A stretch of DNA of 20,624 bases, taken from the IMG/VR virus record IMGVR_UViG_2563366839_000008; one strand, 5' to 3'. Origin of the DNA: a virus (lineage: Duplodnaviria > Heunggongvirae > Uroviricota > Caudoviricetes). A model generated the notes under the pieces. It made no database searches. It was not told the origin of the DNA and saw only the letters and a list, made by a program, of their open reading frames with translations. Both the position numbers and the translations under genes were made by a program. How positions within the stretch are numbered: the first letter of the stretch is position 1; every line of letters starts with the position of its first letter. Below are positions 3,987 through 18,920 of the stretch, piece by piece.

Positions 3987-4178
3987 TTAAAGACCTGCCG
4001 GGATTTCGATATTATCCTGGTGAATAACTTTATCGACCGGGTAACAGTTACCGGGAATTTTCTGTTCGGTTGCTGCAGTCATACACTCCTGCATTGTCCT
4101 GTGAACACTGACTGCAATATCAACTGGCTCTCCGGAAACAAGAAAAACTGTCAGAACAAGTGCAAATGCTGTATTCAT
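3987..4178 (-). CDS. ydfD: YdfD-like small protein (63 aa, N-terminal hydrophobic segment; Qin-prophage lysis-associated protein family)
   Basis: Translation MNTAFALVLTVFLVSGEPVDIAVSVHRTMQECMTAATEQKIPGNCYPVDKVIHQDNIEIPAGL matches recalled YdfD. ATG overlaps the dicB stop (ATGA), indicating coupling. Confidence 0.75.
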   Translation of the reverse strand: MNTAFALVLTVFLVSGEPVDIAVSVHRTMQECMTAATEQKIPGNCYPVDKVIHQDNIEIPAGL

Positions 4179-4363
4179 TGCCAGCATCCTTTTTGTATCG
4201 GACGTAAACGGGCCAGCATTGAAAGAATGCATATTTTATTTAATAGCTCCCGTTCGTGTTTTCTCTTGTTAATGGCATCTTCAGTAAATACAGGGTTACT
4301 GATAGTGACACCAATTTCAAAACAACCTTCAGACGTATTAACGTTTGGTAATAACGTTTCCAT
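4175..4363 (-). CDS. dicB: DicB cell-division inhibitor (62 aa)
   Basis: Translation METLLPNVNTSEGCFEIGVTISNPVFTEDAINKRKHERELLNKICILSMLARLRPIQKGCWQ closely matches recalled DicB. SD GAGGA lies 7 nt upstream of the ATG at 4361-4363; directly downstream of dicF. Confidence 0.85.
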   Translation of the reverse strand: METLLPNVNTSEGCFEIGVTISNPVFTEDAINKRKHERELLNKICILSMLARLRPIQKGCWQ

Positions 4364-4537: not shown

Positions 4538-4590
4538 GGGCGGCAGAGCAGTCACGGAGTAAAACTGATACCGCCAAACGTCACCAGAAA
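4538..4590 (-). ncRNA. dicF: DicF small RNA (53 nt; antisense regulator of ftsZ and other mRNAs)
   Basis: Minus strand reads TTTCTGGTGACGTTTGGCGGTATCAGTTTTACTCCGTGACTGCTCTGCCGCCC followed by TTTTT, matching recalled DicF including its 3' terminator hairpin (GGCGG/CCGCC). Upstream of dicB as in the Qin dicB operon. Confidence 0.85.
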
Positions 4591-5201: not shown

Positions 5202-5511
5202 TGCTTTTTGTTGCAAAGTAATTTTCAAGGGGTTCTATTCGAATCCCTTTCTTTTTCATTAACAAGCCAAACCCCTTATCAATGATGTCCATTAGATCCA
5301 GGAAGTATTTTTCATGTAAATCCTGGTTATCAGAGAGCTGCTTCTCTTCGTACAGCCCGATAAAGGCTCGGCGTACGTTACCGGATATATTGTCGATGGT
5401 TTCTTTTTCTACGGTACTCAGGTCAAGAGTCGCCAGTTGAGAGCGAACCACATTCGATGCCATTTCCTGGAATGGTACTGGTAAATCTTTAAATTCCATC
5501 GTCAACCTCAT
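5179..5511 (-). CDS. Hypothetical protein (110 aa; 106 aa from second ATG) in the repressor-side operon
   Basis: First ATG overlaps the ydfA-like stop (TGATG coupling). Second ATG at 5497-5499 has SD GAGG 6 nt upstream. No recognisable motif; occupies the rex/sie-type position downstream of cI. Confidence 0.6.
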   Translation of the reverse strand: MRLTMEFKDLPVPFQEMASNVVRSQLATLDLSTVEKETIDNISGNVRRAFIGLYEEKQLSDNQDLHEKYFLDLMDIIDKGFGLLMKKKGIRIEPLENYFATKSINSFDSK

Positions 5512-5663
5512 CAGTCAGTGTTTCTGGTTAACCAGCGACGCGCGCCAGCTTCAGTTTTAAACGTTTTGCTTCTGGTATACGTCATCGCGGTGAACGTACC
5601 GTCCTGGTTGGGGAACACGCCACATACCAGAGATTCGCTGTTGCCAAGATCGATAGTATCCAT
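5511..5663 (-). CDS. ydfA: YdfA-like small protein (DUF1391 family), 50 aa
   Basis: Translation MDTIDLGNSESLVCGVFPNQDGTFTAMTYTRSKTFKTEAGARRWLTRNTD resembles recalled YdfA. SD GAGG 7 nt upstream of the ATG at 5661-5663. A longer in-frame start at 5744 exists, but its N-terminal extension looks non-protein-like. Confidence 0.65.
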   Translation of the reverse strand: MDTIDLGNSESLVCGVFPNQDGTFTAMTYTRSKTFKTEAGARRWLTRNTD

Positions 5664-5935
5664 GCTGACCTCATTTCCCCTTAACGCCGGGGTAGCGGAA
5701 CAAAAACCTGCTGCATAGTTATTAAAGTTGAACCCTGCCGTCATGTTCTTACGCCTCGGGCTGGCTACTTAACCCCTGACCACTGCCTGGTAACTCGAAG
5801 TATTGCCCTGCATTCTGTGGGGCGGGGTGGGTTGGTATGTTGTTAAGGTAACAAGAGTTACCTTTCGAGTCAATACAATGTTGCAAAAGGTACATTTGAG
5901 GGCATAAAAAACCCGCAATGAATGCGGGTTCTGAC

Positions 5936-6610
5936 TCAGTCTAAGTATTGATGTATTTGTGAAACTTTACCTTTAATGGTGTAACCACCATTCAGTTCGA
6001 TGGGTTTGTAAAGCGGATTCAGTGACAACAGATAGATGTTTGGTCCGTCAATCGCAACTTTTTTTAGTGTTACGTTTGGCGTTCCTTCCAATTGGATTAA
6101 GATTATTTTTCCCACCAGTTCTCTAATGTTACTTGAGCATGGTGTGATCAGCACGGTAGATCCGTCGGGGATGGTTGGGAGGCCGTTAGAGTTTGTCATC
6201 GCATCTCCCTCAACATGCAATAAAAAAGAGTTTTCAGCGGTTTTTGTCATGACATCAACCCAATTCTTAATACCAGGAATCTCGGTTACTGGACAACTCA
6301 TATCCCAATAACCAGCCTGTTCCCACGTTAAAACGGGCAACCGGGCGATGTTGTCACTAATGTAAGGGTACTGATTCAGACGCAGATCATCGGCTTTATC
6401 GTGACCGTCCTTTCCATAAAGAATCCATTCAGGAGATTTGGAAAGCAATTTTGACAGTAGATACAAATTCTCACCGTCAGGTTTTGAAGAGCCATTTTCC
6501 CATTTTGTTACGGATACACGAGATATGCCGATTGCTTTCGCAACCTGCTGTTGGGTTAATCCAACGTCTTTTCGACGATTCCGAATACGTTCGCTGATAG
6601 TGTTTTTCAT
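5936..6610 (-). CDS. CI/C2-like prophage repressor: N-terminal XRE-type HTH plus C-terminal LexA-like S24 peptidase domain with Ala in place of the catalytic Ser
   Basis: N-terminus MKNTISERIRNRRKDVGLTQQQVAKAIGISRVSVTKWENG parallels P22 C2. Ala-Gly cleavage site present (WEQAGYW). S24 motif reads EGDAMT (GCG codon) instead of GDSM; Lys retained in TLKKVAIDG. Divergent from the cro-like gene. Start chosen by alignment to C2; the ORF extends to 6709. Confidence 0.85.
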   Translation of the reverse strand: MKNTISERIRNRRKDVGLTQQQVAKAIGISRVSVTKWENGSSKPDGENLYLLSKLLSKSPEWILYGKDGHDKADDLRLNQYPYISDNIARLPVLTWEQAGYWDMSCPVTEIPGIKNWVDVMTKTAENSFLLHVEGDAMTNSNGLPTIPDGSTVLITPCSSNIRELVGKIILIQLEGTPNVTLKKVAIDGPNIYLLSLNPLYKPIELNGGYTIKGKVSQIHQYLD

Positions 6611-6701
6611 GTAACCAATGTTACTACCAAGTGATGTTGCTATGGTTGACATTGTTATGTAACTATTGTTACCCTTCTGCTCGAAATAACAGGAGAGTTT
6701 T
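6611..6701. promoter_or_regulatory. Divergent immunity promoter/operator region between the repressor and cro-like genes
   Basis: 91-bp intergenic region with repeated TGTTAC/TGTTAT half-sites, a near-palindrome GTTATGTAAC, a consensus -35 TTGACA at 6646-6651 and a candidate -35/-10 pair TTGCTA (6637-6642)/TAACTA (6660-6665) facing the cro-like gene. Exact operators not resolved. Confidence 0.4.
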
Positions 6702-6917
6702 ATGTTCAAAGATGATGTTCTGCGCTATTTCAAAAAAAAGCGACTAGTAGCTGAGGCTCTTGGAATTTCACATGTGGCTGTTGTGCGGTGGAAAGCCGTT
6801 ATTCCCAAACTTCGCGCAATGGAACTGGATGAAATTACTAACAGTGAATTGAAATACAACCCAGAACTTTACAAGAAGCAGGATAGCACCTCAAACGAAG
6901 GAAAGAATGATTCATGA
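6702..6917 (+). CDS. dicC: Cro-like small HTH regulator (DicC / YdaS family)
   Basis: 71 aa with SD CAGGAGAG upstream; divergent from the repressor. Motifs AEALGISHVAVVRW and LKYNPELY resemble DicC/YdaS-type Cro analogues. Confidence 0.7.
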   Translation: MFKDDVLRYFKKKRLVAEALGISHVAVVRWKAVIPKLRAMELDEITNSELKYNPELYKKQDSTSNEGKNDS

Positions 6918-7339
6918 AAATCAAGCATGAACACATCCGCATGGCGATGAATGTCTGGGCGCATCCGGACGGCGAAAAAGTACCGGCTGCGAAAATTACC
7001 AAAGCGTATTTCGAGCTGGGAATGACGTTCCCGGAACTGTATGACGACAGCCATCCGGAAGCCCTGGCCCGTAATACCCAGAAAATTTTCCGTTGGCTGG
7101 ATAAAGACACCCCTGATGCTGTTGAAAAAATGCAGGCTCTGTTACCGGCGATCGAAAAGGCGATGCCGCCTTTGCTGGTGGCCCGTATGCGTAGCCACAG
7201 TTCTGAATATTACCGTGATATCGTCGAACGGAGGGATCGGCTGGTGAAGGATGTCGATGATTTTGTTGCGTCAGCGGTTGTTTTGTATGACCAGATGAAT
7301 CGCGGCGGCCCGGCAGGGAATGCTGTGGTGATGCACTAA
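6914..7339 (+). CDS. YdaT-like protein (CII functional-analogue family)
   Basis: 141 aa; ATG overlaps the cro-like stop (ATGA). N-terminus MKIKHEHI... is typical of YdaT-family proteins that follow YdaS/DicC-like genes. Family assignment from recollection. Confidence 0.6.
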   Translation: MKIKHEHIRMAMNVWAHPDGEKVPAAKITKAYFELGMTFPELYDDSHPEALARNTQKIFRWLDKDTPDAVEKMQALLPAIEKAMPPLLVARMRSHSSEYYRDIVERRDRLVKDVDDFVASAVVLYDQMNRGGPAGNAVVMH

Positions 7340-11478: not shown

Positions 11479-11689
11479 AAACGGTTTGCGGGAAAAGGAG
11501 AGTTAAGTAGAATTGCAGCGGGTGCTTGAGGCTATCTGTCTCAGGCATGAACACCAAAAGGCAGATAGAGAAAAGCCCCAGTTAACATTACGCGTCCGGC
11601 AAGACGCTTAACATTAATCTGAGGCCATATCTATGCTCTACACACGTAGGTTAGCCTCTTACGTGCCGAAAGGCAAGGAGAAGCAGGCT

Positions 11690-11845
11690 ATGAAGCAGCA
11701 AAAGGCGATGCTAATCGCCCTGATCGTCATCTGTTTAACCGTCATTGTGACGGCACTGGTAACGAGGAAAGACCTCTGCGAGGTACGAATCCGAACCGGC
11801 CAGACGGAGGTCGCTGTCTTCACAGCTTACGAACCTGAGGAGTAA
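11690..11845 (+). CDS. hokD: Hok/Gef-family type I toxin (HokD/RelF-like), 51 aa
   Basis: Translation MKQQKAMLIALIVICLTVIVTALVTRKDLCEVRIRTGQTEVAVFTAYEPEE matches recalled HokD; SD AAGGAG 8 nt upstream. Structured leader at 11480-11689 and a 3' hairpin at 11853-11877. Confidence 0.85.
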   Translation: MKQQKAMLIALIVICLTVIVTALVTRKDLCEVRIRTGQTEVAVFTAYEPEE

Positions 11846-12010: not shown

Positions 12011-12661
12011 ATGAATGAAAATCAGTTAGCTCCTTGTTGGGAATTTCAACCTTATCTTGCTGAAAACTATGTTCGCCACTTGTTGGCGGAGATCGCTAAC
12101 GTACTTGAGCAGCTGTACTATCATAAGCACGCATTAGACAGCAACTGGTCTGAAGGTGTAAGGGCTTATGATTGGGTCAGAAATCATCTTATTCAAAATG
12201 AAGATGCAATTCCTGGCCTTGAGATGATTTCCAAGGGGTTGGACTATGTAGTTGCTTTAAATAAAGTTCCGCTACAATTTACCAAAGATTGCATTAATAA
12301 CCCCAAAAAGAAACATCGTCTGCGTCGAAATAAAGTAGAGTATGAGCAGCTCTCATTGTTTGGTGATGTTGAGGCTGAGCAAGATATTACATGGCGAGTC
12401 ATAGCTGAGCCTTTTTTATCCGAAGAGGGCGATGGTGAATTAGAGTCCACACTGCCTCGTTGGGAGGTAGCTCTTGTTGGATTTAATACTTATGGTGCTC
12501 AGATTAGTATAGTTTCTCATCAATCTACAGCATCGATGCCGCTTATGCCTCTTGATTATAACACACTCCCTGACGAAGCGGAGATTAATAAGGTGCCTCT
12601 TCGTCGGCGTACGAAGGATAAAGATTTGGATGTGAGCAGTGATGGAACATCAGGTGAATAA
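12011..12661 (+). CDS. Unknown protein, 216 aa; upstream partner of the HTH-metallopeptidase gene (candidate effector/toxin)
   Basis: AT-rich ORF with a weak SD, overlapping the downstream gene by 20 nt. No recognisable catalytic motif. Flanked by terminators. Confidence 0.65.
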   Translation: MNENQLAPCWEFQPYLAENYVRHLLAEIANVLEQLYYHKHALDSNWSEGVRAYDWVRNHLIQNEDAIPGLEMISKGLDYVVALNKVPLQFTKDCINNPKKKHRLRRNKVEYEQLSLFGDVEAEQDITWRVIAEPFLSEEGDGELESTLPRWEVALVGFNTYGAQISIVSHQSTASMPLMPLDYNTLPDEAEINKVPLRRRTKDKDLDVSSDGTSGE

Positions 12662-13745
12662 CTTCACTGAGTATCGGGGTGATAAGCTCAAACTAGCGAG
12701 AATGGCTGTTGGGCTTTCTTGTGAAGAGTTAGCCGAAAAAATTGGCAAGACAAAGCAATTCGTTAGCAAACTGGAGAAGGGGTGCAGGCCATCGGAGCAA
12801 TGTCTTGAGTTAATATCTTCAGCGCTTATGATTAAGTCCAGTTTTCTTTTTACTGAACGAAAATACGCTCTGGAAAGTGATGTCTGCCATTTTCGGAGTA
12901 AGAAGTCCAGGACTCAAACGCTGACTAATAGTGTATTGGCCAGGGCTGAGATTCTTAATATTATAATTTCTGCTGTTGAAGGTGAAATCGAATTTCCTGA
13001 CGTTAACATACCGGAGCACCCAGGGGCTGAATTACTTACTCCGAATGATATTGAGCGAGTGGCAGAAGATTGTCGCCGTGCCTGGAATTTAGGTCTTGGC
13101 CCTATATCATCAATGGTTAAATTGGCGGAGAGTTTAGGGGTAATCGTTGCGCATGTTACGGGAGTCGATGATCGTGTTGATGCTTTTACTGTTCACAATA
13201 ACAGGCCTGTTATCATCAGGAACAATGTTAAAAAAAGCATATGTAGATTTCGCTCTGATTTAGGTCATGAATTAGGGCATTTAGTAATGCATGAGGGCAT
13301 AACGACAGGTGATAAACTTACGGAATCACAAGCCGATCACTTTTCGAGCGCCTTATTAGTTCCCAGGTTATCTTTCATTAAAGAATTTCCACGAATACGA
13401 GGTAAGCAATTCGACTGGAATGCTCTGGTTGAATTTAAACTTAGATGGAAAATCAGCCTTAAAATGTGTATTTATCGAGCCAGCGCATTAGGCTTATTGA
13501 CCCAGGAACAGGCAAGAACTGGCTATATGCATCTTAATTCCAGAGGGTATACGAGAGTTGAACCTGGTGATGAACTTTTGCGCCCTGAAGAACCCGGCAT
13601 GCTGGCCGAGGCGATTGAAATGCTGGATGATGCAACCTGGCTAAGAATTCTTATGAAAACTGGCTTGAGCCAAGATTTAATTCGTGAGTTGTTCTCCATC
13701 AACAGACCTATTACAAATCCAAGAAATATTTTCCAGATTGTTTGA
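12642..13745 (+). CDS. XRE-family HTH fused to ImmA/IrrE-family zinc metallopeptidase (COG2856-like, HEXXH motif), 368 aa
   Basis: N-terminal HTH LKLARMAVGLSCEELAEKIGKTKQFVSKLEKG; central zinc-peptidase motif DLGHELGHLVMHE. ATG at 12642 (GTG at 12639) is coupled to the upstream gene. AT-rich. Confidence 0.8.
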   Translation: MEHQVNNFTEYRGDKLKLARMAVGLSCEELAEKIGKTKQFVSKLEKGCRPSEQCLELISSALMIKSSFLFTERKYALESDVCHFRSKKSRTQTLTNSVLARAEILNIIISAVEGEIEFPDVNIPEHPGAELLTPNDIERVAEDCRRAWNLGLGPISSMVKLAESLGVIVAHVTGVDDRVDAFTVHNNRPVIIRNNVKKSICRFRSDLGHELGHLVMHEGITTGDKLTESQADHFSSALLVPRLSFIKEFPRIRGKQFDWNALVEFKLRWKISLKMCIYRASALGLLTQEQARTGYMHLNSRGYTRVEPGDELLRPEEPGMLAEAIEMLDDATWLRILMKTGLSQDLIRELFSINRPITNPRNIFQIV

Positions 13746-16830: not shown

Positions 16831-17892
16831 ATGAAAAATACTGTAAAAATAAACAGTGTTGATTTAATCAACGCTGATTGCCTGCATTTTATTCAGTCCC
16901 TGCCTGATGATTCCATTGACCTGATTGTTACCGATCCGCCGTACTTCAAGGTGAAACCCAACGGCTGGGACAATCAGTGGAAAGGGGACGAAGATTACCT
17001 TAAGTGGCTGGACCACTGTCTGGCCCAGTTCTGGCGGGTGTTAAAACCTGCCGGAAGCCTTTACCTGTTCTGTGGGCATCGCCTGGCATCTGATATTGAG
17101 ATCATGATGCGTGAACGTTTCAACGTGCTTAACCATATCATCTGGGCGAAGCCGTCCGGACGTTGGAATGGGTGTAATAAAGAAAGTCTGCGCGCATATT
17201 TTCCTGCCACAGAGCGCGTTCTGTTTGCTGAACATTACCAGGGGCCATATCGCGGCAAAAGTGACGGCTATGTAGCAAAAGAAAGGGAACTCAAACAGCA
17301 CATAATGGCACCGCTGATATCGTATTTCAGGGATGCTCGTGCCGAACTGGGTATAACGGCAAAACAAATTGCCGAAGCCACAGGTAAGAAAAATATGGTT
17401 TCCCACTGGTTTGGTGCCAGTCAGTGGCAGTTGCCGAATGAGGCTGACTACCGGAAGTTACAGGCACTGTTTTCCCGTATAGCGGCAGAGAAGTTTCAGG
17501 AACAACAACTGGAACAACCACACCACCAGTTGGTGGCATCTTATGATTCACTGAATCGCAAATATTCTGAATTGCTGGATGAGTTTAAATCTCTCCGGCG
17601 CTATTTCTCCGTATCAGTCTCCGTGCCTTATACCGATGTCTGGATGCATAAACCCGTTCAGTTCTACCCGGGTAAACATCCGTGTGAGAAACCGGCGGAT
17701 ATGCTCAGGCAAATAATCAATGCCAGTAGTCGACCCGGCGATCTGGTTGCTGATTTCTTTATGGGATCCGGTTCCACAATAAAAGCAGCAATGGCGCTGG
17801 GGCGTCGGGCGTTAGGTGTTGAGCTTGAGACAGAGCGGTTTAATCAGACCATCCAGGAAATCAGTATGTTATCAGCAAATACAATTTTGTGA
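16831..17892 (+). CDS. Orphan phage DNA methyltransferase (amino-MTase, beta-class: DPPY motif IV N-terminal, FxGxG motif I C-terminal)
   Basis: Motif IV LIVTDPPY near the N-terminus and motif I DFFMGSGST near the C-terminus; internal HTH-like segment GITAKQIAEATGKK. No adjacent restriction endonuclease gene. Weak SD. Confidence 0.85.
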   Translation: MKNTVKINSVDLINADCLHFIQSLPDDSIDLIVTDPPYFKVKPNGWDNQWKGDEDYLKWLDHCLAQFWRVLKPAGSLYLFCGHRLASDIEIMMRERFNVLNHIIWAKPSGRWNGCNKESLRAYFPATERVLFAEHYQGPYRGKSDGYVAKERELKQHIMAPLISYFRDARAELGITAKQIAEATGKKNMVSHWFGASQWQLPNEADYRKLQALFSRIAAEKFQEQQLEQPHHQLVASYDSLNRKYSELLDEFKSLRRYFSVSVSVPYTDVWMHKPVQFYPGKHPCEKPADMLRQIINASSRPGDLVADFFMGSGSTIKAAMALGRRALGVELETERFNQTIQEISMLSANTIL

Positions 17893-18173: not shown

Positions 18174-18464
18174 ACAACGAATCCTTCTGATCTGCTTTTG
18201 CGGGGCTTTTTTGTATCCGCTCCATGCCCGGCGTATAAGCGGAGGTTGGTCAGTTTTCTAAAAATTGAAATACCTCACAATTCAGCCAGTTAATGGTTGT
18301 TTGTCTGGCGAAGAGTTTGTAAATAAAAAAACGCATGGTGAATCCCCCTAAGCGGCGGGGCGAATCAGCAGTCAGTTCTGGGATAATCGCGGGTTCGTAT
18401 GCTGATGCCGGACTCACCGGGAGGCACCCGGCACCATGCATCATGGTCATCCCCTTGTATGATA

Positions 18465-18488
18465 CCCCTCTCCGGAGGGGTATTTTTT
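18465..18488 (+). terminator. Rho-independent terminator
   Basis: CCCCTCTCCGGAGGGG hairpin followed by TATTTTTT. Confidence 0.55.
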
Positions 18489-18920
18489 GGATAAAAAAGC
18501 CCGCGCTGGGAGGCACGGGCGGCAAGGAATAAAACGTGAAGAAATTTTCACAGGCGCATAATAATCCGATGTTGCCAGATTTTGCAACTGCATCATCTGG
18601 TTATTATGTGAGCTGGAAAATCAGATTCTGTATGGACTGAAGCCATGCTGTTATTTAGGGCCAAAGAGCTGGCTTTTTCCCGCCTTCTCTCCAGTAACGA
18701 TTAATGAGAAAAGAATGAAATGCTTTTCCTGGGGAGGAGGGCAGTAGAAAAAAGAACCCGCCAGCAAAAATATGGGGGATGAACAGCTTTTGCTACTCAG
18801 GTTGCTGGCGGGTATGGTTCTTCATGAAATAAGAATGTTACGCGGTATTTTTAATGAAAATGATAATTATTGTCAATTGGTTGTGCGTATTTTTTCATAC
18901 ATGACTGGTAAAGGTGATTC

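Follow-up and report, generated by a model that had tools for sequence, protein, structure and literature searches.

Does a prophage repressor that is built like phage lambda CI but has lost its catalytic serine still couple the prophage to DNA damage? This question is raised by a 20,624-nucleotide stretch of Caudoviricetes DNA (IMG/VR record IMGVR_UViG_2563366839_000008; the whole stretch is referred to here as the window), in which a CI-type repressor gene encoding 224 aa occupies positions 5936 to 6610 of the minus strand (ATG at 6610, TGA at 5936-5938). RecA-stimulated self-cleavage of the repressor is the textbook mechanism of prophage induction and the basis for predicting how prophages respond to DNA-damaging antibiotics. 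The RefSeq names for the protein, 'LexA family protein' or 'S24 family peptidase', imply that it can be cleaved in the SOS response, whereas its sequence predicts no self-cleavage because an alanine sits where the serine nucleophile should be. We conclude that the protein is probably a natural non-self-cleaving CI, and that immunity and repression of the rightward promoter (PR) and of the leftward promoter (PL; DicF, DicB, Exo, Xis and Int) would not be directly relieved by activated RecA (RecA*).

Fold and catalytic residues of the repressor

The repressor consists of an N-terminal helix-turn-helix (HTH) domain (HTH_3, residues 9-63), a variable linker at about residues 68-90 and a Peptidase_S24-like C-terminal domain (residues 92-216). 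Both domains were identified by Pfam above the curated cut-offs (HTH_3, E 3.5e-17, 62.6 bits; Peptidase_S24, E 9.5e-17, 61.2 bits), and the coordinates, start codon and HTH given in a first-pass annotation of the window proved right. A sequence search of the PDB matched full-length lambda repressor (3bdn, E 4e-14), the DNA-binding domain of P22 C2 (E 1e-12) and C-terminal fragments of lambda CI; overall identity is 35% to P22 C2 and 26% to lambda CI. An AlphaFold2 model built with 25 homologues has a mean predicted local distance difference test (pLDDT) score of 77, with a disordered linker (residues 70-86). Its best Foldseek matches are structures of lambda repressor, LexA and P22 C2 (DNA-binding domain), and LexA S119A structures are among the matches. 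The protein has the DNA-binding domain, linker and S24-fold C-terminal domain of an S24 repressor, and by fold and architecture it belongs to the LexA/CI S24 repressors (Pfam PF00717, MEROPS S24). It is best explained as a CI/C2-type immunity repressor, encoded by a lambdoid prophage with YdaS/YdaT-type genes as its Cro and CII analogues.

The register of the catalytic motifs was established by two alignments. In a HMMER alignment to lambda CI (3bdn), VEGDAMT faces VEGNSMT, TLKKV faces TFKKL and EQAGYW faces VQAGMF. A MAFFT alignment of the repressor and its relatives with lambda CI, P22 C2 and E. coli K-12 LexA, each taken from its own record, places Ala137 (GCG, read from 6202 to 6200 on the minus strand) in the S24 nucleophile column, together with lambda Ser149, LexA Ser119 (VSGMSMK) and the serine of P22 C2. 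Ala99-Gly100 (GCT GGT, 6311-6316, minus strand; motif EQAGYW) lies in the scissile-bond column of LexA Ala84-Gly85 and lambda Ala111-Gly112. Lys183 (AAA, 6062-6064, minus strand; motif TLKKV) lies in the general-base column of LexA Lys156 and lambda Lys192, and is invariant in the 25 homologues. Thus, of the features of a self-cleaving S24 protein, the lysine base and the Ala-Gly bond are present and the serine nucleophile is absent. The first-pass annotation had claimed this combination of a lost serine (GCG at 6200-6202), a kept Ala-Gly site and a kept lysine, and had named alignment to LexA, CI and C2 as the way to check it; the alignments confirm the motif register on all three counts.

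No alternative serine was aligned at the nucleophile position by HMMER or MAFFT, and comparison with Ser-bearing sisters showed no consistent gain of Ser, Thr or Cys near residue 137 in the lineages with alanine. With HMMER, MAFFT and the fold search in agreement, a misregistered alignment and the use of another serine as nucleophile are ruled out. Sequencing or assembly error is likewise ruled out, by GCG in all 80 IMG/VR loci and in hundreds of complete genomes. The repressor lacks the one feature that defines S24 repressors as peptidases and should be described as a non-peptidase homologue.

A Ser-to-Ala repressor of the LexA/CI family binds DNA and dimerises normally but does not autodigest. 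In 1987, Slilaty and Little reportedly found that neither LexA S119A nor the equivalent lambda CI Ser149 mutant autodigests. The same residue is replaced here, by the same amino acid, as in these laboratory mutants and in lambda cI ind-, and non-inducible repression would be expected. This agrees with the first-pass prediction of a non-cleavable repressor whose prophage would be SOS-uninducible or would depend on an antirepressor. Unlike the engineered or selected LexA S119A and CI mutants, however, the allele studied here is natural, and it is fixed, old and widespread. The serine was conserved in all seven S24-bearing clades in a survey of CI proteins of Shiga toxin (Stx) phages (PMC8951638), and no description of the alanine allele was found in the full-text literature searched, RefSeq accession included. 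Non-cleavable repressors were known already; what is new is a natural, ancient and widespread serine-to-alanine allele under purifying selection, with a Ser-bearing, predictably homoimmune sister.

Distribution, age and selection of the alanine allele

The 675-bp repressor gene is present in 702 of 5,426 complete E. coli genomes, in 678 of them at ≥99% identity. About 690 complete genomes were nearest to the Ala-type query, compared with about 8 nearest to the Ser-type query, and the alanine allele has a frequency of roughly 13% (about one in eight) among complete E. coli genomes, lineages of enterohaemorrhagic E. coli (EHEC) included. In IMG/VR, codon 137 is GCG in 80 of 80 loci, all with an uninterrupted reading frame and no stops. 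Among the 20 distinct alleles at these loci, 18 codons vary synonymously and 7 non-synonymously. A single-step revertant to TCG (Ser) was found in this sequence context in none of 683 genomes.

Close relatives from a collection of 5.8 billion proteins were sorted into five 90%-identity clusters (C1 to C5), and the IMG/VR alleles described above vary within the first of these. C1, the cluster of the studied repressor, comprises 499 sequences from E. coli and E. albertii; it has alanine (GCG) at residue 137 in all 15 members inspected (40 of the 499 were read). Alanine is also found in C2 (E. coli, 89% identity to the studied repressor, GCG) and C4 (Salmonella, 70%, GCA). C3 (E. coli, 88%, TCA) and C5 (Enterobacter, 66%, TCG) have serine, and all inspected members of the five clusters match their cluster's residue. 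Relatives at ≤52% identity all have serine, except for one degenerate Arsenophonus sequence. In this homologue (P0015, Arsenophonus nasoniae, 46% identity), VPDDKTDN replaces V.G[DE]SMTN and HDMKKW replaces the Ala-Gly region, and the lysine is kept.

Because the serine lineages (C3, C5) interleave with the alanine lineages (C1, C2, C4), the sequences indicate at least two Ser/Ala changes at position 137, whatever the branching of C1, C2 and C3. This count is independent of topology; neighbour-joining bootstrap values were not used, given a mismatch between rooted and unrooted clades. Between C1 and C2, the C-terminal domain has a synonymous divergence (dS) of 0.69 and a non-synonymous divergence (dN) of 0.036 (dN/dS 0.05). 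The ratio is similarly low for the HTH domain (0.09) and relaxed for the linker (0.35-0.93 in comparisons among C1, C2 and C3). The low C-terminal ratio between two alanine lineages therefore implies that the S24 domain has long been under strong constraint without its nucleophile. Judged from these comparisons, the alanine allele is old, fixed, widespread and under purifying selection, and it alternates with serine among close relatives.

At least three prophage backbones carry the allele, and two attachment sites are involved. The window has an identical counterpart in E. coli MY1-8, where it forms the left part of a prophage of about 48 kb at ompW that is apparently complete, with only the tail-fibre end fragmentary. 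A two-residue variant of the repressor is also found at ompW, in the urinary tract infection strain 2/0, where the head and terminase module differs. The identical protein (WP_000103686.1) is encoded in a decayed prophage at yccA in the EHEC strain E2855, and a Ser-type, C3-like allele occupies the same slot in a prophage at yccA in strain ST130.

Prophage decay could make the alanine a neutral or recent inactivating mutation of a 'grounded' element, with no significance of its own. The E2855 prophage, with its frameshifted integrase and its exonuclease disrupted by an insertion sequence, is of the kind this explanation requires, and GCG and TCG are one G/T change apart. However, the two Ala lineages have diverged to a dS of about 0.7 with the C-terminal domain constrained as described, the 70%-identical Salmonella lineage also has alanine (with the codon GCA), the gene is intact at all 80 loci, and prophages that appear complete but differ in their structural modules carry the allele. 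We find decay hardly credible as an explanation.

Operators, promoters and the leftward operon

A 14-bp palindrome, GTAAC-N4-GTTAC, occurs in three exact copies within the window. The first, GTAACCAATGTTAC (6611-6624), is the distal site of the rightward operator (OR) region and abuts the repressor ATG. The second, GTAACTATTGTTAC (6659-6672), is conserved in all five lineages and overlaps the spacer and -10 element of candidate PR. The third, GTAACAAGAGTTAC (5848-5861; the leftward operator, OL), overlaps the corresponding elements of candidate PL. At ≤2 mismatches the palindrome has 14 matches compared with 5.75 expected, and none of 100 shuffles reached 14. The offsets of the two intergenic copies are the same in C1, C2, C3 and C5; C4 shares them too, with one mismatch (in the 6611-6624 copy). 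The DNA between them diverges across the five lineages, whose proteins are 66-100% identical. The recognition-helix segment RVSVTKWE (R31-E38) is invariant in the 25 homologues. Because the operator offsets are conserved and the recognition helix is invariant, Ser-type and Ala-type repressors are predicted to recognise the same operators, and hence to be homoimmune.

Candidate PR (6646-6675, plus strand) consists of TTGACA at 6646-6651, an 18-nt spacer and TACCCT at 6670-6675; its TTGACA is conserved in all five lineages. It faces a cro-like gene of the P22_Cro family (6702-6917, plus strand) that is divergent from the repressor gene and in the position of YdaS, with AGGAG at 6691-6695, six bases 5' of its ATG at 6702. 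A YdaT-family gene, a CII analogue (PMC8630535), follows at 6914-7339 (plus strand). Candidate PL (5845-5873, minus strand) consists of TTGACT at 5873-5868, a 17-nt spacer and TACCTT at 5850-5845. The two candidates are alike in geometry, each with a palindrome that spans the downstream half of the spacer and runs three bases into the -10 element. Directly after the repressor stop is a terminator-like hairpin with a U-run (5904-5931, minus strand; -16.7 kcal/mol, z = -4.4). The divergent cro-like gene and the repeated palindromes, one of them at the leftward promoter, are those of a lambdoid immunity region. From position and conservation, we infer that the repressor binds the three palindromes, represses PR and PL, and confers superinfection immunity.

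The operator map also bears on the start codon. The RefSeq model of the repressor, generated by the Prokaryotic Genome Annotation Pipeline (PGAP), has 238 aa and starts at an ATG at 6652, adding 14 codons (6611-6652, minus strand) beyond the ATG at 6610. This extension consists of the operator palindrome, the complement of the PR -35 element TTGACA and unconserved filler: its 'NIGY' and 'MST' coincide with the operator GTAACATTGGTTAC and the TTGACA complement, and the intervening codons are not conserved. Repressor relatives at ≤52% identity start at an MK(T/N) methionine. Given the makeup of the extension, the true start is probably the ATG at 6610 and the RefSeq start wrong. The repressor mRNA is then possibly leaderless or near-leaderless, by analogy with lambda cI and paaR2 (PMC8630535).

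In its two-domain architecture and fold, with the lysine and Ala-Gly in register, the protein resembles P22 C2 and lambda CI. The divergent cro-like gene, the palindromic operators at the rightward and leftward promoters and the terminator after the repressor gene are also like those of P22 and lambda. The differences are that the nucleophile is alanine here and serine there, that the operators are 14-bp GTAAC-N4-GTTAC sites, with two OR sites 48 bp apart rather than three adjacent ones, and that YdaS/YdaT-type genes take the place of lambda cro and cII as partners.

Downstream of OL and candidate PL the order is a ydfA-like DUF1391 gene (5511-5663, minus strand), the first gene of the leftward operon, then a phrog_6937 gene, the DicF small RNA (sRNA; 4538-4589, minus strand; Rfam 76.7 bits, gathering score 48) and the cell-division inhibitor gene dicB (4175-4363, minus strand; WP_000449192.1). 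In all, candidate PL faces ydfA, DicF, dicB, ydfD, exo, xis and int. The first-pass annotation had linked the repressor to control of the DicB/DicF operon, and the link holds: an exact operator lies in candidate PL, 75 bp past the repressor stop and upstream of ydfA, DicF and dicB. Within the operon, antisense to it, is an open reading frame (ORF) for a 91-aa hypothetical protein (WP_000102678.1; 4926-5201, plus strand). It has no Pfam, PHROG or PADLOC match, and no gene is found at its position in the other two annotated prophages with the same repressor.

The same slot, with ydaS/ydaT-like genes diverging from it and a leftward operon of the dicB/kil type downstream, is occupied by DicA in Qin, RacR in Rac and PaaR2 in CP-933P, Sp12 and Sp4. 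These three repressors are SOS-insensitive through lack of self-cleavage (PMC8630535). They are short HTH proteins that lack the S24 domain altogether, unlike the repressor studied here, in which a full S24 domain is constrained and only the nucleophile is lost. Sp4 of E. coli O157:H7 Sakai, inserted at yccA, shares the attachment site and the flanking exo-dicB and replication modules with the yccA carrier of our repressor, but there a PaaR-type repressor and a ParE toxin-antitoxin pair replace the CI-like gene. This rules out Sp4 as a characterised carrier of the repressor, and its comparison with the CI-like carriers clearly shows that the immunity module has been swapped.

Retention of the scissile bond and exit from lysogeny

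We propose that the HTH domain would bind the 14-bp GTAAC-N4-GTTAC sites at the rightward promoter, at the repressor's own start codon and at the leftward promoter, placing the cro-like gene, ydaT and the replication genes under repressor control from the rightward side. Ala137 would block RecA*-stimulated intramolecular self-cleavage, and an SOS signal would not directly lift repression, including that of DicF and dicB. The S24 domain would most likely be kept for dimerisation or oligomerisation and cooperative operator binding. Exit from lysogeny may then take a RecA-independent route, through a stochastic or physiological flip of a bistable switch formed by the repressor and the Cro-like protein; alternatively, an inactivator encoded elsewhere may be used. 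Bistability has precedent in related YdaS/YdaT regions whose repressors lack the peptidase motif, which are bistable and unresponsive to mitomycin C; the PaaR2 immunity region, with its peptidase-less repressor, acts as a bistable switch, independent of SOS, whose flipping follows growth phase (PMC8630535).

If this proposal is right, Ala-type prophages, and DicF and DicB behind PL, are uncoupled from the SOS response, and annotation from domains alone over-calls inducibility. The classical serine-to-alanine 'ind-' change would have been made repeatedly in nature, with the S24 domain kept for a non-catalytic role. For experiments, a natural control is at hand in the Ser-type sister, which has the same operators.

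The wider family was surveyed through the nearest 50%-identity cluster representatives (P0103-P0251), which provided 108 full-length relatives at 26-45% identity. The nucleophile column holds Ser in 92, Thr in 7, Ala in 5 and another residue or a gap in 4. Because about 15% of the surveyed clusters (16) are without serine, its loss appears to be recurrent in the family, which points to catalytically dead S24 repressors as a class that arises repeatedly.

Several observations weigh against a natural non-self-cleaving CI as we describe it. Ala-Gly and Lys183 are invariant in all alanine lineages close to the studied repressor, whereas all five Ala-bearing relatives in the wider survey have lost Ala-Gly, yet keep the lysine. 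Conservation of both elements could mean that the cleavage apparatus is still used somehow. In addition, no phage isolate in INPHARED carries the repressor (the closest protein has 43% identity), and a consensus promoter scanner called nothing in 5600-6800; candidate PR and PL were read by eye and are hence putative.

Keeping the scissile bond despite loss of the serine is unusual within the surveyed family. A structural constraint on the docking of this strand in the cleft is a possible reason. Minority possibilities are occasional reversion, since one transversion restores serine, and use of the bond as a substrate for cleavage in trans. In the last case the repressor would still be cut at Ala99-Gly100, by a Ser-bearing S24 partner (a homoimmune Ser-type repressor, another CI or LexA) or, within the same explanation, through another nucleophile of its own. 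Such cutting would fit the invariance of Ala-Gly and Lys183 across saturated synonymous divergence and the occurrence in E. coli of Ser-type relatives with the same operators. Kim and Little are said to have shown in 1993 that serine-to-alanine LexA is cut intermolecularly in vitro by an active C-terminal fragment. However, known trans-cleavage is slow, and with only about 8 complete genomes carrying the Ser type against about 690 with the Ala type, the partner would usually be absent. As for another nucleophile, the Ala lineages have no lineage-specific Ser, Thr or Cys close to position 137. The lysine also persists in most Ser-less relatives whose Ala-Gly is gone, and therefore its conservation can be structural. 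Taken together, these points make continued cleavage of the repressor very unlikely.

A natural non-self-cleaving CI could nevertheless belong to an SOS-inducible prophage if a LexA- or stress-controlled antirepressor, from its own or a co-resident prophage, inactivated it, as modelled on Gifsy-1/-3, P22 Ant, 186 Tum and N15 AntC. This would refine, and does not exclude, a loss of self-cleavage. Trans-acting antirepressors are known for non-cleavable repressors in Salmonella and can act across prophages (PMC3121763). Like Gifsy-1/-3 and other antirepressor-controlled repressors, ours is predicted not to be cleaved, and any induction needs another factor (PMC3121763). The allele has also been kept in prophages of different backbones that seem complete, suggesting that the phage can still go through its whole life cycle. 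Unlike Gifsy-1/-3, the studied prophage has no identified LexA-controlled antirepressor gene, and the sequence relationship to those repressors is limited to the HTH. No match to an antirepressor family (Ant, KilAC, BRO or Tum-like) was found across the whole 48-kb prophage with PHROGs, Pfam and RefSeq annotation, a result that leaves room for small ORFs and trans-acting factors.

LexA boxes were sought with the pattern CTGT-N8-ACAG, which found both positive controls, the boxes of sulA and lexA. Exact cores in the prophage lie only inside coding regions. One good LexA-like box in the window, the near-consensus TACTGTAAAAATAAACAGTG (16839-16858, plus strand), could serve such an antirepressor, but it lies 8 bases into the ORF of a type II DNA methyltransferase (ATG at 16831) downstream of Q and not before a small ORF. 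Other prophages with the same repressor that were examined (L018, L019) lack the box at their methyltransferase genes. The only other exact core in the window is inside rmrA, and the one elsewhere in the prophage has a G+C-rich spacer. These results do not favour a LexA-controlled antirepressor of a recognisable family within the prophage, and we consider antirepressor-mediated SOS induction in general to be unlikely.

We also considered a stronger claim: that serine and alanine toggle within one immunity group, in which operators, Lys and Ala-Gly are shared, so that one G/T transversion would switch between SOS-inducible and SOS-deaf forms. The alanine form would be favoured as a damage-proof immunity factor, and pseudo-protease CI repressors would be common and selected. 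Were this so, the Ala form would be dominant and would silence, during SOS, its own DicB, DicF and lysis genes as well as homoimmune incoming or co-resident phage; it might also stay a substrate for trans-cleavage by a Ser-type partner. We regard this extended scheme as speculative and distinctly improbable.

The MY1-8 prophage as a whole carries int, xis, exo, ydfD, dicB, the repressor, the P22_Cro-family and YdaT-family genes, O-like and DUF977 genes and Q. It further carries genes for the methyltransferase, lysis, terminase, portal, capsid and tail through J, then lom and tail fibres. One protein encoded in the nin region (12642-13745, plus strand), with HTH and Peptidase_M78 domains, was considered as an ImmA/IrrE-like repressor protease. 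It was rejected, as it is instead RmrA of the Rosmer anti-phage defence system and is missing from other carriers of the repressor. It forms an overlapping pair with RmrT (12011-12661, plus strand; RmrT, E 5e-25; RmrA, E 6e-105, with HTH_3 and Peptidase_M78). Also identified were a sok antisense RNA (117 bits) with hokD (11520-11695 and 11690-11845, plus strand), and the sRNA STnc100 (114 bits; 18304-18492, plus strand) upstream of the holin gene.

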